DNA from: a virus
Lineage: Duplodnaviria > Heunggongvirae > Uroviricota > Caudoviricetes
DNA: 6,117 nt
Reading direction: 5' to 3' (one strand)
Virus record (IMG/VR): IMGVR_UViG_2778261389_000007
Shown here: positions 1 through 6,117 of the stretch, one piece after another
How the letters are laid out: each line of letters opens with the position of its first letter
Position numbering within the stretch: the first letter of the stretch is position 1
Notes under the pieces: model-generated
Seen by the model: only the letters and a program-made list of their open reading frames with translations
Database searches by the model: none
Told to the model about the DNA's origin: nothing
Made by a program: the position numbers and the translations under genes

Positions 1-1314
1 TTAACTTACTGATTTTAATAATCCTCTACTGCTAGTTTGTGGTCTATGGGGCATCAATGGGGCAAAATCACCCAGCTTCTGATTCAGCATTGCGATCTGC
101 TCTGCGTTATTGTCTGCCATCCATGCGCCGTACACATTGAAAACCATTTGCGCACTAGCGTGCCCCATCTGACTGGCTATAAAGCTTGGATTGGCGCCAG
201 CGGCCAGTGACCAGCACGCGTAAGTGTGGCGCGACTGGTAAGCTTTTCGATGCCTGATCCCCGCCTTTTTTAACCCTGCGTCCCACGAGTCACCAAACGA
301 ATCAACCTTGTAGATAACCCCCACATCCTTACTTCGACGGACTATCTTAGGGTTAAAGACAAATGTACAGCTGTGCTGCGTTGTTCGACCATATTCACGC
401 AATTGCACGTTGATGTGATACTGCTGCCCGAGTCTAGTCATTTCCATCTGATTCCTTAACGCATCGATGGCTGGCTGAATGAGGTGTATCACTCTATCCG
501 TACTGGCGTCCGTTTTCGGTAGTGTGAACTCGCCCAGTTTTGTATAATTACGGCGAATTGTTATTGTACCCGCTTCAAGGTCTATATCTTCCCATGCCAG
601 GGAAACCAGTTCTCCGTGACGAACACCTGTGTACACCGCCAGTGACCACATGTTTTTCGTCTGCTGATGCCGGCACGCATCTATCAGACGGATGAATTCA
701 TCACGGCTGAGCGGATCTGGCTCCACCCTGGCCCTTTTTAATGGCTTTATTCCATCAAAGGGATTTGCCTTTATGTACCCATTATCGGCGGCGAACTGGA
801 ACATTCCGGCGATAGTCGTCATGTAGTAATTGACGGTGACCGCGCTCCGGCCCTTAACAGGGATCCTGCCCTTTGCCGCGCACTGATAACCCATCAAAAG
901 CTCTTTCCTGATGTACAGCAACTCTTCTTTCTCAATCGCTGTCACCAGTCGGGTAGCCCCGATCAGCGGTACAACAACTGCCACGACCGACTCGTACCGT
1001 TTGTGCGCGTTCGCGCTGATTTCCATCTTTTTCAGATCCAGCCACTTCTCTTCGAGTTCTTTCACTGTGATTTCTTTCTTGCCCAACCCAAAAATTTTAA
1101 GGTTAGGTGAATCTGGAAACCGTTCAGCATAATCAAAGCTTCCCGTGCGGATGGCAAAGCATACCGACACCCGCAGTTCCCCGGCGATCTTCCTGTTCTT
1201 AGCGGTGTCAGGGACACCGAGGTTTTCCCTGACGCGCTTACCTTTAAAATTAAACCAGATGCGCAGACTGCCACCGTGGTTTTCGACGCCTGTTGGATAT
1301 GTGATTTTATCCAT
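1..1314 (-). CDS. int: Phage tyrosine integrase (lambdoid Int family), 437 aa
   Basis: Seen: full ORF with ATG at 1314..1312, preceded on the minus strand by GGAGG with a 5-nt spacer; stop TAA at 3..1. Established: N-terminal arm-type region (MDKITYPTGVENHGGSLRIWFNFKGKRV), then tyrosine-recombinase motifs in canonical order: TGVRHGEL (catalytic Arg, about aa 232), SRHTYA (Arg-His box, about aa 362), GHASAQM...NVYGAW (His about 385, nucleophile Tyr about 395). Resembles E. coli lambdoid prophage integrases from memory; not searched. Confidence 0.93.
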   Translation of the reverse strand: MDKITYPTGVENHGGSLRIWFNFKGKRVRENLGVPDTAKNRKIAGELRVSVCFAIRTGSFDYAERFPDSPNLKIFGLGKKEITVKELEEKWLDLKKMEISANAHKRYESVVAVVVPLIGATRLVTAIEKEELLYIRKELLMGYQCAAKGRIPVKGRSAVTVNYYMTTIAGMFQFAADNGYIKANPFDGIKPLKRARVEPDPLSRDEFIRLIDACRHQQTKNMWSLAVYTGVRHGELVSLAWEDIDLEAGTITIRRNYTKLGEFTLPKTDASTDRVIHLIQPAIDALRNQMEMTRLGQQYHINVQLREYGRTTQHSCTFVFNPKIVRRSKDVGVIYKVDSFGDSWDAGLKKAGIRHRKAYQSRHTYACWSLAAGANPSFIASQMGHASAQMVFNVYGAWMADNNAEQIAMLNQKLGDFAPLMPHRPQTSSRGLLKSVS

Positions 1315-1369: not shown

Positions 1370-1606
1370 TCATCCTGGCTGCTTGCTTTTCATTGAAGCG
1401 ACCCAGGCATCTACAGCCTTTCTGTTATACATGCACTCACTGGAAGGTTTTGGATTCCCGTCAGGTGATACGTGGATATACTCCCTCCCAACCATCCAGC
1501 ACTCTTTTCTGGCCCGGAGGATGGTACCGGGCTTGAGCCCGGTAACCGCGATAAGAACGCTTTCACAAACCCAATCGTTAGGAGCTAACTGAATAACATT
1601 GCTCAT
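1370..1606 (-). CDS. xis: Excisionase-like protein (putative Xis / recombination directionality factor), 78 aa
   Basis: Seen: 78-aa ORF immediately upstream of int on the same strand with a 55-nt gap; ATG at 1606 preceded by GAGGCGGG. Inference: position and size fit lambdoid xis; the basic central segment (KPGTILRARKECWMVGREYIHVSPDG) is consistent with a small DNA-binding excisionase. Family membership not verified. Confidence 0.65.
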   Translation of the reverse strand: MSNVIQLAPNDWVCESVLIAVTGLKPGTILRARKECWMVGREYIHVSPDGNPKPSSECMYNRKAVDAWVASMKSKQPG

Positions 1607-2964: not shown

Positions 2965-3386
2965 GAAATTGAATCTCCGGCAGTTTCTTTTGTGTAGTTT
3001 TCCCATCCACCATAGCTGTTAACCATTTCGCCCAGCCGCGAGAAGCAAGCATTCATCCATCGGATGCCCCTTGGGGTTAGTGTTGGTACAGTCCCCCAGT
3101 CGATGAAGTCAGAATTACTGCGGTGCATATATTTAATGAGGTCCAGAATGTTGATGTAATGGGCACGGCGTTTTTCCATATCCCATCCCTTATCTTCCAA
3201 ATACGAATCGATAAAGCTCTTAATGGCTGGTTGGTCTAGTGAAATATCCCCGTACTGATGGCGGTACACCGGGCGACGGTGCATGCTGACTAAGTGGAAC
3301 AGGTAGGCATCAGACACCCATATCAGCGCTTGCTGGTGGGCCAGCTCAACAGAGCCAACCGGTACCCAAATTTCATTATTGTTCAC
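2961..3386 (-). CDS. Hypothetical phage protein, about 141 aa (146 aa if the ATG at 3401 is used)
   Basis: Seen: ORF 2961..3401. A GTG at 3386..3384 is preceded by GGGAGGG with a 6-nt spacer and forms a GTGA overlap with the upstream Bro-N gene's stop (3383-3385). The ATG at 3401 would overlap that gene by 19 nt and has only a weak GGTGA upstream. The start is therefore ambiguous; the protein is unrecognised. Confidence 0.65.
   Translation of the reverse strand: MNNNEIWVPVGSVELAHQQALIWVSDAYLFHLVSMHRRPVYRHQYGDISLDQPAIKSFIDSYLEDKGWDMEKRRAHYINILDLIKYMHRSNSDFIDWGTVPTLTPRGIRWMNACFSRLGEMVNSYGGWENYTKETAGDSIS
3332..3339 (+). other. Chi-like octamer GCTGGTGG (RecBCD recombination hotspot sequence), single copy
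   Basis: Seen: exact 8-mer on the plus strand at 3332-3339. Established: this is the E. coli Chi sequence. One copy in 6 kb is roughly the expected background density in enterobacterial DNA, so significance is doubtful. Confidence 0.3.
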
Positions 3387-4141
3387 TGTTGACCCTCCCA
3401 TCCAATCACCTGGAACAGCCCCATCTTAGGGTGATACCACCGGGTGCCTCGAGGTTCAGCTTCAAACATCATTTTGGTGAATGCCGTCATAAATGGCTGC
3501 TCACGCACAATGGTCATGGTGGATTTGGTTCCTCCAGGCGCAATAAATGGGATAGGCTTATGGTCGATGTCATAAGCGGAGACTAACTGGCGACACTTTG
3601 CATCTGAAAGTCCGCACAGTGCTTTCAATTCCGAGTATCCAGCCCAACCAGGAGGCGTTGCACCACGAGCGATATGATCTACTAGCTCGGTAACCTCAAC
3701 GACCTTGTCCTCAACGTGGTTAAGGCGACGCTCCTGCTCAACATTCAGCAGGGCCATTTCGGCAATGATCTCCGCCTGAGATTTAGGGCGTTGGTATCTA
3801 TAGCTGCCAGTTTCGCGGATAGATGGCAGAACATCTTCGCATACCCAGTCTTGTACACGTTCAGCGGAAGCAAGCTGGCTACGGAGAATGAGCCGGTAAG
3901 CATCAGATTCAGACGCAAGTTGCATGCCACGAATTTTGTCGTTAAAACCCAATTCTCGCGATTCGCTATAATTAAGTTTAATCAATGACTTGCAGTGAGT
4001 TTTTAGCGCGTCAGCCGGATTTGCGTAACCCAGGGATTTTGCCAGCTCAACGGCATCAAATACTGGTTTTCCCTGGTAAAGCATCCCGCTCAGAGAAATG
4101 CCGAGATCCGACGAGTTAAATTTCATCAGTTGATTACTCAT
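3383..4141 (-). CDS. Bro-N domain protein (phage antirepressor-like N-terminal DNA-binding domain) with uncharacterised C-terminal domain, 252 aa
   Basis: Seen: the track ORF 3383..4267 has an in-frame ATG at 4141 (MSNQLMKFNSS...) preceded by GGAGGAAG with a 9-nt spacer; the longer form would overlap the next gene by more than 130 nt. Established: the N-terminus carries Bro-N hallmarks (GKPVFDAVELAKSLGYANPADAL ... YRLILRSQLASAERVQDWVCEDVLPSIRETGSY). The C-terminal half, about 135 aa, is unrecognised. Confidence 0.8.
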   Translation of the reverse strand: MSNQLMKFNSSDLGISLSGMLYQGKPVFDAVELAKSLGYANPADALKTHCKSLIKLNYSESRELGFNDKIRGMQLASESDAYRLILRSQLASAERVQDWVCEDVLPSIRETGSYRYQRPKSQAEIIAEMALLNVEQERRLNHVEDKVVEVTELVDHIARGATPPGWAGYSELKALCGLSDAKCRQLVSAYDIDHKPIPFIAPGGTKSTMTIVREQPFMTAFTKMMFEAEPRGTRWYHPKMGLFQVIGWEGQQ

Positions 4142-4418
4142 TGTCTTCTTCCTCCAGTTCCTTTGCTTCTCGTTCGGCAATTGCATCGAGTTCTGCATCA
4201 AGCGATTCGGCCTCGCCATAGGTCGCGATGCGGATAGATTTGAATGCTGGTTCGCTGAATTCAGCATGCCCCTTACAGAGCCCAGCAGTCGCAGAAACTA
4301 CAGCCTCCATTTCGCTACTACTGCCGACAAAGATTGAATATTCGCGGCGCTCGGCATTTTCAGTCACCATGAATGTGACGCAGTACCACGCAGTGATAAG
4401 TTCGTTTTTCATCATCAT
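4134..4418 (-). CDS. Hypothetical small acidic protein, 94 aa, with strongly acidic C-terminal tail (ESLDAELDAIAEREAKELEEEDNE)
   Basis: Seen: ORF with three tandem ATGs at 4418, 4415 and 4412; GAGGT lies 2-3 nt before the first, so the true start is probably the second or third. Its stop overlaps the Bro-N gene start by 8 nt. About 21 acidic against 8 basic residues, by hand count. Confidence 0.65.
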   Translation of the reverse strand: MMMKNELITAWYCVTFMVTENAERREYSIFVGSSSEMEAVVSATAGLCKGHAEFSEPAFKSIRIATYGEAESLDAELDAIAEREAKELEEEDNE

Positions 4419-4423
4419 TTACC

Positions 4424-4930
4424 TCAGTGCAAAATGTGTTGAACGGGTATTGCTTCGCCGACACGTAACCGAACAGCAAGATCCATAAACATCTCGTCGA
4501 GAAAACCGCTGAACCACGAATGACCGTCTTCTTTCAGGCGCTGATCGTTGGCGGAGTAGAACTGGAAGACAGCCAGATATCGCTCCTGTGGTTTTTGCTC
4601 GAGCAGAGCGCCTTCTACGTGTTCAATAAGCAGGTTCTCGATAAGCTCCCGCGTTAAGCCAAAAACAAACTCACCAGTTTTAAACTGGTATTCACCGTCA
4701 CGAAGTCCCCAGCGTTTTTCGCACTCAATCAGGTAGGTAAGGGCGACAGTTCCGCCCATGGAGTGACAAACGGTTTCAGCCCATTCATGCTGCTCTTCAG
4801 TTGTCAGCGTACCTTTGCCGTAACGATTTTCATCGAGCATCCACGCGGGGATGTGCGTACCGGACTGCTCCTGCATTTCTTTCAGTCGGGCAACTAGCTG
4901 CTTTATGTTGTCGTTTTTGTTGGTACTCAT
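4424..4930 (-). CDS. Hypothetical phage protein, 168 aa
   Basis: Seen: ORF with ATG at 4930 in an ATGA overlap with the upstream ORF's stop (4927-4930); GGAG about 10 nt upstream. Mixed composition; no motif recognised. Confidence 0.75.
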   Translation of the reverse strand: MSTNKNDNIKQLVARLKEMQEQSGTHIPAWMLDENRYGKGTLTTEEQHEWAETVCHSMGGTVALTYLIECEKRWGLRDGEYQFKTGEFVFGLTRELIENLLIEHVEGALLEQKPQERYLAVFQFYSANDQRLKEDGHSWFSGFLDEMFMDLAVRLRVGEAIPVQHILH

Positions 4931-5145
4931 CGTTTTAATTCTCCGTTATACGTTTCATGACTCATTACTTCCCAGTTCTTGCCGCCATCGCGGGATAGCA
5001 GCCGCCAGCGCGGATTAACCTTCAGGCTGAGAAATCCGGTGCGTCGCATACGTCGTGCATATACTCGCTTCCGTCGGTATCGCAGCAGGACCTGCATCGC
5101 CTGCAGGTGTACGCGTTCAGGTATTCGAATTGCTGTCAGTGCCAC
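4927..5145 (-). CDS. Hypothetical Arg-rich small protein; start uncertain (GTG at 5145 gives 72 aa, ATG at 5097 gives 56 aa)
   Basis: Seen: ORF whose stop is ATGA-coupled to the downstream 168-aa gene. The N-terminal part is very Arg-rich with rare CGA/CGG codons (RYRRKRVYARRMRR) and overlaps the 3' end of the frameshifted gene upstream; the C-terminal part (SRDGGKNWEVMSHETYNGELKR) looks more protein-like. Could be a small basic nucleic-acid-binding protein, or partly a non-coding frame. Confidence 0.4.
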   Translation of the reverse strand: MALTAIRIPERVHLQAMQVLLRYRRKRVYARRMRRTGFLSLKVNPRWRLLSRDGGKNWEVMSHETYNGELKR

Positions 5146-5369
5146 CAGTTAGCTCCTGTATACGTAACCCGGCTTCGCGAGCCATTTTGATAAAAGTGTC
5201 CAGTGCGCAAATATGTTCGTCGTCGAGCAGCCGGCGGTCGCATGTCACACGCCCTTTTTCGATGTAAAGAACCACGCGTCCGGTGAAATCCGGAAGCACA
5301 TGCAGATCCACGTTGAGGACTGGGGGGGGGGATCTGCATTCCGTGCATAATTGTTTGTTGTGAGGCCAT
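5117..5369 (-). pseudogene. Small phage ORF split by a frameshift in a G10 (minus-strand C10) homopolymer; an 83-aa product would be restored by a 1-nt contraction
   Basis: Seen: ATG at 5369..5367 is TGATG-coupled to the upstream gene's stop and reads MASQQTIMHGMQI-PPP into the C-run, after which that frame turns Arg-rich (SPQRGSACASGFHRTRGSLHRKRACDMRPP...). The -1 frame after the run is protein-like (VLNVDLHVLPDFTGRVVLYIEKGRVTCDRRLLDDEHICALDTFIKMAREAGLRIQELTGGTDSNSNT, stop at 5117). With 9 rather than 10 G the two halves join in frame (hand-checked). Confidence 0.5.
5300..5339. repeat. Perfect 10-bp inverted repeat (ATGCAGATCC / GGATCTGCAT) with a 20-nt spacer containing the G-run
   Basis: Seen: plus strand 5300-5309 atgcagatcc and 5330-5339 ggatctgcat are exact reverse complements. 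The G10 run (5322-5331) fills the 3' part of the spacer and runs 2 nt into the right arm. Each arm contains a GATC. Confidence 0.85.
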
Positions 5370-5731
5370 CAGTTAATTCCTCCACATACGTATTTCTCTT
5401 TCGCGTGTTTAATTAATTCCGCAAAAATCTCGTCAACAATCATCTTTCCTGTTTCGGTCAGATATTCGGTGTGTCCATTGATATCGACGCTTTTCATATA
5501 CGTCTGGCGAAGAAATGTTTCCGCTTCTGTGTTGAATTCAGTCCGAGCCTGTTTTTCGAAGCGCAGCAAAAGTTTCATCATTGATTCTTCGTTAATCTCG
5601 ATAACCTGAATATTGTTATCGGGCATATTTACGGATAGGCAATAACCTCCTGTCTTACGCTTCATTCGATTTAATGTCGCAATAGCAATGCGGCGGCGAT
5701 AAATTTCAATGGTGTTGTTTTTCATTGTCAT
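5369..5731 (-). CDS. Hypothetical phage protein, 120 aa, in an apparently lower-GC segment
   Basis: Seen: ORF with ATG at 5731 sharing one base with the upstream gene's TAA (TAATG); a second in-frame ATG lies two codons in. Two 60-nt samples counted by hand gave about 38% GC here against about 53% in int. No motif recognised. Confidence 0.7.
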   Translation of the reverse strand: MTMKNNTIEIYRRRIAIATLNRMKRKTGGYCLSVNMPDNNIQVIEINEESMMKLLLRFEKQARTEFNTEAETFLRQTYMKSVDINGHTEYLTETGKMIVDEIFAELIKHAKEKYVCGGIN

Positions 5732-6117
5732 TACCGCCCGTAAGCCTTGCGCAGAAAAAGGTTTGCAATATGCAGATAACTATTTCCATAAGAGGCAAAA
5801 AGTTTTGCTGTGTTGTGTGCTGCTTTATCTTTCAGAAACGTCATTATTGCCCCCCCCTTTTTTGAGGTGTTCTCCAATGTCATTTGGGTCATGAAGCAAA
5901 GCTCATTAAGTAACGAGGTGAATCTTCCTGCTACCTTCACATCAGTGCGTGTGATTGCGGGCATAAGTAACTGGGTAAATTCAGCACGCAGCTCATGCGC
6001 ATATTTATTGGCACACTCTGCTGTTTTGTGGGCTTTATTTATGTAAAGAAAGTCGCCATCCTGATTGGCTGGATGGGCTTTGTTATTCACGACTTCACTT
6101 CTGACGATAATATTCAT
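5731..6117 (-). CDS. Hypothetical phage protein, 128 aa; start codon coincides with the window's right edge; contains an in-frame A6G8 (plus-strand C8T6) homopolymer
   Basis: Seen: ORF open from the ATG at 6117..6115 to the TAA at 5733..5731; whether the gene extends beyond the window cannot be told. The frame reads through the homopolymer as TCA AAA AAG GGG GGG GCA ATA ATG (S K K G G A I M). Confidence 0.6.
   Translation of the reverse strand: MNIIVRSEVVNNKAHPANQDGDFLYINKAHKTAECANKYAHELRAEFTQLLMPAITRTDVKVAGRFTSLLNELCFMTQMTLENTSKKGGAIMTFLKDKAAHNTAKLFASYGNSYLHIANLFLRKAYGR
5850..5863. repeat. Homopolymer tract C8T6 (plus strand) inside the last coding sequence
   Basis: Seen: 5850-5857 is C x8 and 5858-5863 is T x6. 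It is the second long G/C homopolymer within about 550 bp. Confidence 0.85.

Follow-up and report, generated by a model that had tools for sequence, protein, structure and literature searches.

The 6,117-nucleotide window analysed here (IMG/VR virus record IMGVR_UViG_2778261389_000007, Caudoviricetes) is the leftward arm of a lambdoid prophage, in which a small accessory gene of the PHROG 340 family is broken by a run of ten cytosines at codons 13–16. Comparison of this locus with its relatives in public sequences suggests that the run is hypermutable through slipped-strand mispairing and acts as a contingency-type simple-sequence locus, situated in a conserved accessory gene of the leftward early operon in lambdoid prophages of Citrobacter, Enterobacter and Salmonella; we consider this explanation likely. 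The repeat lies within an open reading frame (ORF), its length is polymorphic on identical flanks, the reading frame follows the length modulo three, and the out-of-frame (OFF) alleles are otherwise intact.

A ten-base run breaks a conserved small gene

The features that carry the argument are as follows.

5117–5369, minus strand: the tract gene, a small accessory gene of PHROG 340 encoding 83 residues at C9, frameshifted in the window
5322–5331, minus strand: the poly-C tract, C10 on the coding strand and G10 on the plus strand, comprising the last base of the Ile13 codon, the Pro14-Pro15 codons and the start of the Pro16 codon
5136–5369, minus strand: the ORF open from the coupled ATG, 77 residues, of which 16 are native and 61 out of frame
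5117–5311, minus strand: a 64-residue remnant ORF with a GTG start, holding nearly the whole conserved PHROG 340 core (DLHVLPDFTGRV...)
5379–5383, minus strand: a Shine-Dalgarno sequence, GGAGG, read from the sequence 9 nt upstream of the ATG at 5369

The plus strand between positions 5300 and 5339 reads ATGCAGATCC ACGTTGAGGACT GGGGGGGGGG ATCTGCAT. A previous reading of the sequence, made without database searches (hereafter the sequence-only reading), had pointed to a G10 run that disrupts a small gene with a coupled ATG at 5369, and our analysis bears this out. The run is present at 5322–5331. The ATG overlaps the TGA of the upstream PHROG 1737 gene by one base, an arrangement for translational coupling of the two genes, and is preceded by the GGAGG motif. 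The gene is broken exactly in the run: the frame from the ATG reads MASQQTIMHGMQIPPP and then shifts out of frame after IPPP to give the 77-residue product, whereas the conserved frame is left as the 64-residue remnant. No Shine-Dalgarno sequence is visible upstream of this remnant, which is annotated as the same protein in 11 contigs. The TGA of the 77-residue ORF (5136–5138) lies a few bases past the GTG start (5145) of the adjacent ParE-like gene.

The sequence-only reading had also proposed that one G fewer would restore a continuous 83-residue ORF. Deleting one G indeed yields a product identical to the annotated coding sequence WP_088902160.1 of Escherichia coli NZ_LR536431, a locus that shares 99% DNA identity with the window and has G9 at the tract site. 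C9 is the in-frame (ON) length, and the window carries the +1 OFF length. Since base composition predicts only 0.009 G/C runs of at least 10 bases in the window, the run is highly non-random.

Tract length varies between near-identical loci

We conducted two censuses of tract length. In the contig census, species-representative genomes, IMG/VR viral contigs and metagenome contigs were scanned with the protein and a gapped DNA pattern, which yielded 37 distinct contigs with an uninterrupted run. In the product census, the protein predicted for each tract length of the exact allele of the window was looked up by exact sequence.

Contig census
C6: 3 distinct contigs
C7: 1
C8: 7
C9: 14
C10: 11, among them the window and the type strain of Citrobacter youngae
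C13: 1

Product census
C6, 82 residues: 1 contig
C7, 76 residues, +1 frame: 4 contigs
C8, 88 residues, called from an upstream GTG: 22 contigs
C9, 83 residues: 90 contigs
C10, 77 residues: 31 contigs
C11, 89 residues: 9 contigs
C12, 84 residues: 4 contigs

The lengths in the product census are unimodal and centred on the in-frame C9, and a C8 variant allele is found on 114 Enterobacter contigs. The sequence-only reading had named comparison of the same locus in related prophages as a check; the C6–C13 spread that this comparison returned argues against a one-off homopolymer miscall.

The variation is most direct where little else differs. Three loci (L015 with C10, L029 with C9 and L032 with C10) have identical 950-nt flanks and differ in the tract alone. 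Near-identical loci likewise carry different tracts (C8 in L004 versus C6 in L012; C10 in L023 versus C9 in L014 and L022), and five coding sequences with no difference beyond the tract were each seen with two lengths. These comparisons indicate that changes in tract length are recent and recurrent.

The C10 state of the window is itself widespread. Its 77-residue product occurs on 31 other contigs (38 index blocks), assembled in Logan and the European Nucleotide Archive (ENA) from independent runs, and the prophages concerned differ in their immunity regions. Runs with this product are ERR5321934, SRR9264549, SRR24338088, SRR24962753, SRR17651281, ERR2217850, SRR27977084, SRR26032462 and SRR13172358. 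C10 is also present in a 98.4% identical Logan contig and at the 96% identical locus of the Citrobacter youngae type strain. Of 5426 complete E. coli genomes, only one has this allele at an identity of at least 85%, so these genomes add little to a census.

Out-of-frame alleles are otherwise intact

Setting the tract to C9 restored an intact 76- or 83-residue ORF in all 43 out-of-frame loci that could be assessed. One further locus (L056:1501-1755, IMGVR_UViG_2938147185_000005) combines C8 with a 7-nt duplication, CCTCAAC, just downstream, which brings the gene back into frame so that it reads IPPQSSTLNV instead of IPPPVLNV. The frameshift is therefore real and the ORF worth restoring. The same duplication is found with another tract length in the protein P0059, so the tract continued to vary after the compensatory event.

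Relatives without any run form the majority. They mostly read ATC CCC CGC CCN (IPRPV), with additional interrupted forms (IPTP, IHPQ and IPSP), and 47 of 48 are intact, as against 17 of the 37 tract alleles (Fisher p 1.8e-8). Because run-less relatives are nearly always intact, the run itself is what breaks the gene. It has a simple origin: a single G-to-C change converts CCC CGC CCA, the form common among relatives, into C9.

The only broken relative without the tract, L119:1498-1749, reads CCCCGCCCCC (C5 after G) where its closest relatives have CCCCGCCCC; even short runs at the tract site would therefore slip occasionally. We also considered whether a long run had arisen independently in a Klebsiella clade (P0061, IPPPV) and rejected this candidate, whose codons are CCC CCG CCC.

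The disrupted gene encodes a selected protein

The repaired 83-residue protein matches PHROG 340 with an E-value of 2.5e-26, residues 7–83 aligning to positions 3–79 of the 85-position profile. Citrobacter, Enterobacter, Salmonella, Klebsiella and related genera have many homologues, and phages, among them Fels-1 and phages of Klebsiella and E. coli, carry relatives too; a profile search of the whole library returned only 66 clusters at 50% identity, all of them small proteins. The conserved core begins at about residue 18 (L-x-V-x-P-D-F-T-G-R-V ... F-I-E-L-A-R-x-A-G). Residues 1–17, including I-P-P-P, constitute a variable N-terminal tail that many members lack, and it is in this tail, ahead of the core, that the tract sits, which is the usual place for a frame-switching repeat.

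Across 20 distinct 83-residue alleles of the tract-bearing clade, the ratio of nonsynonymous to synonymous divergence (dN/dS) is 0.12 at a mean dS of 0.36, which indicates strong purifying selection on the protein. The full-length profile match and this ratio together establish that the PHROG 340 gene is real.

Structure and representative searches used P0001, which is 92% identical to the repaired protein, as query. AlphaFold (AF2) modelling from a diverse alignment produced a confident model (pLDDT 83) of a β-hairpin and a helix, whereas a shallow alignment gave an unusable model (pLDDT 52). The model has no significant fold match in the PDB or BFVD. Searches of Pfam, NCBIfam and PADLOC with the tract-gene protein gave no match, nor did a Pfam scan of 28 diverse members or a profile search of PDB sequences.

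One family member, P0157 (81 residues), leaves the frame at a shortened C tract and regains it about 20 codons later at an A5 run (GAAAAAGGG), the two frameshifts scrambling the best-conserved motif in between. This allele may have arisen through genuine hypermutation, or it may be an artefact of assembly.

A slipped-strand explanation and its alternatives

In the mechanism we propose, the nascent and template strands would misalign within the C/G run during replication, and single bases would be gained or lost. C9, and also C6 and C12, would give the 83-residue protein from the coupled ATG (ON), whereas C10, as in the window, would give the 77-residue nonsense product and C8 a 40-residue truncation. 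From what is known of slipped-strand mispairing, the length changes should be frequent, reversible within a lineage and far above the rate of ordinary frameshifts. The resulting mixture of ON and OFF genomes could have consequences, for example as bet-hedging. Because the gene lies in the early operon, these would be felt chiefly once the phage is induced or infects, and would leave progeny or lysogens with differing states of the accessory function. Within this explanation, selection for the switching itself is possible but somewhat doubtful. The phase-variable switch suggested by the sequence-only reading survives in part: length varies between near-identical loci as a slipped-strand switch predicts, whereas a role for the hairpin or the Dam sites finds no support (see below).

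Several observations weigh against this explanation. The in-frame share among distinct contigs (17 of 37) is not significantly above the one-third expected of random phase (p 0.075), and contig counts are non-independent samples in which clonal strains are sequenced repeatedly. The tract calls of some individual assemblies could be homopolymer errors. Several lineages have interrupted the run, and the test for run retention at synonymous sites is underpowered, with only 2–3 informative sites and 8 of 11 background four-fold sites polymorphic. OFF alleles may simply be tolerated in an operon that is probably silent in the lysogen, and with the function searches (Pfam, NCBIfam, PADLOC, PDB and BFVD) empty, no selective trade-off can be named.

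Part of this evidence would also fit a neutral hotspot in a gene that is decaying or so dispensable that broken copies persist, in which one G-to-C change made a long C run that slips fast, with neither an evolved switch nor a benefit. The ancestral-looking ATC CCC CGC CCN of most relatives is one substitution away from the run, the interrupted lineages are stable, the operon is expected to be silent in the lysogen, and neither the in-frame share given above nor that of a second tract in the same operon (9 of 31 distinct loci, near random phase) departs clearly from chance. We regard this alternative as rather unlikely, since a dN/dS of 0.12 marks a selected protein, none of the 43 OFF loci has a second lesion, the L056 duplication restored the frame and the run persists across alleles with a mean dS of 0.36. 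The product census, moreover, peaks sharply at C9, and 95 of its 161 contigs keep the frame (p 2e-11 relative to one-third, on counts that are non-independent). A more prosaic possibility is that the window is miscalled, in which case the tract would be G9 and the gene whole: some platforms tend to err in G/C runs of ten bases, and G9 is the commonest length among relatives. The recurrence of the identical C10 product on 31 other contigs, from independent runs and different prophage backgrounds, together with C10 in the Citrobacter youngae type strain and the 98.4% identical Logan contig, makes a miscall very unlikely. Nor can the C6–C13 range and the compensatory duplication all be miscalls, and assembly error, which the sequence-only reading had held out as the trivial alternative, fails as a general explanation.

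The C10 allele might instead be partly expressed by recoding, through a +1 ribosomal slip on CCC-C at Pro-Pro-Pro or through slippage of RNA polymerase, so that tract length tunes the amount of protein. On CCC-C, tRNA-Pro is classically prone to +1 frameshifting, ribosomes stall at consecutive prolines without EF-P, long homopolymers can give transcriptional slippage, and OFF alleles are common and otherwise intact, as recoding would allow. On the other side, no out-of-frame length is fixed, most alleles need no recoding, run-less relatives are the majority, the run lies between the arms of a potential hairpin with no stimulatory structure after it, and transcriptional slippage is best documented for A/T runs. 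Recoding is, in our judgement, quite unlikely. Its strict form, a programmed ribosomal frameshift site, was rejected on the variable length (C6–C13), the in-frame state of the commonest form and the lack of a downstream stimulatory structure. The slipped-strand contingency-type locus remains the explanation we prefer.

The inverted repeat is a probable by-product of the coding sequence

A perfect 10-bp inverted repeat with one GATC site per arm flanks most of the run, as the sequence-only reading had described.

5300–5309: left arm ATGCAGATCC, GATC inside; on the coding strand, (Val)-Asp-Leu-His codons
5330–5339: right arm GGATCTGCAT, GATC inside; on the coding strand, Met-Gln-Ile-Pro codons

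A repeat finder gives the arms as 100% complementary over 10 bp and 20 nt apart. The run had been placed inside this 20-nt spacer, which is correct for 8 of its 10 G; the last two G already belong to the right arm and begin it. The sequence-only reading had further suggested that the hairpin could affect slippage or translation; we find a functional RNA or DNA hairpin, or a Dam-dependent switch, controlling slippage or expression extremely unlikely. What speaks for it is the perfect complementarity with GATC in both arms, a predicted RNA hairpin of −18.8 kcal/mol (z −1.9; DNA hairpin z −2.5), and arm pairing at 6–10 of 10 positions in all 28 distinct arm combinations (mean 8.6). The pairing is nonetheless accounted for by the conserved peptide, because CAGATC (Gln-Ile) is the reverse complement of GATCTG (Asp-Leu), and the arms are largely kept in relatives without the run. 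Changes across the 28 combinations mostly break pairs or create wobble pairs, with compensatory changes in only one or two (CAA/TTG in L008 and, partly, L109), and in the commonest allele lacking the tract (GTGCTGATCC) the arms contain an internal T-T mismatch. Unlike the run, the inverted repeat alone is not highly non-random: one perfect repeat of at least 10 bp with a 3–30-nt spacer was observed against 0.18 expected, and 12.7% of shuffled windows contained at least one.

Known Dam switches have their GATC sites inside regulator-binding sites of promoters, not in ORFs. Here both sites fall within the ORF (codons CAG-ATC and GAT-CTG), and no promoter-like site was seen between 4800 and 6117. 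Dam-dependent epigenetic phase variation of the pap, agn43 or gtr type was rejected on this ground, the GATC sites not being in regulator-binding sites of a promoter. The inverted repeat, with its two GATC sites, most likely arises incidentally from the Gln-Ile and Asp-Leu codons.

A second tract in the same operon

Two genes upstream of the tract gene, another homopolymer varies in length, which places two variable tracts within 530 bp of one operon.

5850–5863, minus strand: second tract, A6G8 on the coding strand (C8 at 5850–5857 on the plus strand), inside the gene at 5731–6117

This tract is in frame in the window, and relatives range over A2–A7 and G6–G11, with the frame kept in only 9 of 31 distinct loci. 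Many relatives of the protein encoded at 5731–6117 end at about residue 89 instead of 128 because the second tract is out of frame.

Further G/C runs of 8–10 bases occur at other positions in related prophages (L012:9641; L019:2250 and L028:5820, which are one site; L001:9103; L042:5379 and L079:552), and at least one of the sites has differing lengths in two contigs (C9 versus G10, the contigs being oppositely oriented). Long G/C runs seem unusually frequent in this group of prophages.

A broader proposal would be that a widespread group of lambdoid prophages of Citrobacter, Enterobacter and Salmonella actively keeps several long G/C homopolymers (at least two, the C9/C10 tract and the A(n)G(m) tract) in consecutive accessory genes of the early leftward operon. 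Every burst or population of lysogens would then hold a combinatorial ON/OFF mix of these genes, as bet-hedging against superinfection by other phages or against the defences of the host, and the tract frame might also set translation of the ParE-like gene. We put this forward tentatively, as a possibility that we would not favour at present; if true, it would amount to a contingency system of temperate phages in mismatch-repair-proficient enteric bacteria.

Operon context and the ParE-like neighbour

The remaining genes considered in the window all lie on the minus strand.

1–1314, minus strand: tyrosine integrase
1370–1606, minus strand: excisionase-like gene
3383–4267, minus strand: Bro-N/Ant protein, accompanied by a series of small genes
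4927–5145, minus strand: ParE-like gene (PF24732, PHROG 1525), GTG start at 5145 with AGGAG 7 nt upstream
5369–5731, minus strand: PHROG 1737 gene, 120 residues, its TGA overlapping the ATG of the tract gene by one base
5731–6117, minus strand: gene with the second tract, 128 residues in the window, the tract lying near codons 88–92

The integrase, excisionase, Bro-N/Ant protein and upstream S24 repressor, together with PHROG 340 membership, identify the tract gene as phage-encoded. In related contigs, a cI-like HTH-S24 repressor gene lies about 1.3–2 kb upstream and is oriented the same way, and a Cro/YdaS-like gene is divergent. This arrangement makes the tract gene about the fourth gene of a pL-type early operon, which is probably repressed in the lysogen. 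Neither a promoter-like site nor a minus-strand terminator-like site was seen within 4800–6117. In the E. coli prophage copy L001, another early gene is annotated as frameshifted and an IS5 transposase gene is inserted upstream of the operon (L001:5410-5831, L001:7112-8092).

The 3′ end of the tract gene overlaps by 29 nt the ParE-like gene, which matches PF24732 ParE_like with an E-value of 6e-19, above the cut-off. The Pfam and PHROG profiles and the arrangement of Shine-Dalgarno sequence and GTG indicate a ParE-like protein of 72 residues from the GTG at 5145; the NCBI annotation of the E. coli homologue starts at an internal Met (56 residues). The stop of the tract-gene ORF lies at 5136–5138 with C10, 26 nt further on in the ON state and about 100 nt earlier with C8. 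Since the stop shifts in this way relative to the GTG at 5145, tract phase could alter translational coupling to the ParE-like gene.

As in ParD/ParE-type II toxin–antitoxin pairs, a small gene lies directly upstream of a ParE-like gene (PF24732) and overlaps it. Here, however, the association is non-obligate in both directions. The PHROG 340 gene is directly upstream in 71 of the 80 loci retrieved with the ParE-like protein, and in the other 9 it is absent and the ParE-like gene follows the PHROG 1737 gene; conversely, no ParE-like gene follows the tract gene in its 76-residue forms. The AF2 model matches no antitoxin fold. On these three observations we rejected an obligate ParD/ParE-type antitoxin role. 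The GGTDSNSNT tail of the tract gene (5117–5145 in the window) is encoded by the ParE-like leader with its AGGAG, and in loci without the tract gene (L195, L202 and L206) a GGT(D/N)S..NS tail sits on the PHROG 1737 protein. The tail is a by-product of the module junction, outside either protein family.

Comparison with known contingency loci

Simple-sequence contingency loci of bacteria are familiar from the homopolymeric tracts of Neisseria, Haemophilus, Campylobacter and Bordetella (for example PMC1891110 and PMC5084427). In the classic cases, the genes concerned encode surface structures or restriction-modification systems, and the bacteria are host-adapted pathogens. In Enterobacteriaceae, by comparison, few long G/C homopolymers are seen, and phase variation by homopolymers is uncommon and considered atypical. 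Contingency loci of phages are a recent addition, described for Campylobacter phages in 2021 and for T-even phages in a 2025 preprint. The locus studied here resembles the bacterial cases in that the tract is near the 5′ end, ON and OFF follow length modulo three, lengths are distributed around ON and OFF alleles are otherwise intact. It differs from them in that the tract gene is phage-borne and probably expressed only after induction.

The locus brings together hundreds of public contigs spanning C6–C13, a protein under selection, a compensatory mutation and a second tract in the same operon, and is a ready test case for slippage tracts as switches of temperate phages versus tracts that are merely tolerated. 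Annotators should be prepared to meet both the tract gene and its neighbour as "frameshifted" genes in roughly half of all assemblies, and should take this neither for assembly error nor for gene loss.

Work by Sorensen and colleagues in 2021 reportedly showed by experiment that Campylobacter phages carry hypermutable polyG tracts that switch frame by slippage and give mixed phage populations; these tracts are said to lie in genes for receptor binding or for the tail, in virulent phages of a host without mismatch repair. PMC10877375 cites Sorensen et al. 2021 (Cell Rep 35:109214). The present tract is similarly a G/C homopolymer of variable length that switches the frame of a phage ORF. In contrast to those tracts, it lies in an accessory gene of the early operon of a temperate lambdoid prophage, its hosts are mismatch-repair-proficient Enterobacteriaceae, and the polymorphism shown for it is that between isolates.

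In T2, T4 and other coliphages, contingency loci consist of mononucleotide repeats in ORFs that undergo reversible ±1 frameshifts at an elevated rate (Gomez, Barrick, Waters 2025, bioRxiv 10.1101/2025.10.21.683753). The same preprint proposes bet-hedging against host defences and finds the repeats enriched in regulatory and hypothetical genes, with several repeats in some regions; they are mainly A runs of 6–9 in virulent phages, and reversion rates were measured. The present locus shares with them a mononucleotide repeat in a phage ORF, and its two tracts in one operon fit the pattern of several repeats per region. It differs in having a G/C run of 9–10 bases, which is rarer by composition, in lying in a prophage and in being documented by a large natural census of lengths in place of rates. 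Judged by its sequence-level features, the tract gene appears to be a further phage contingency locus of this already known type.

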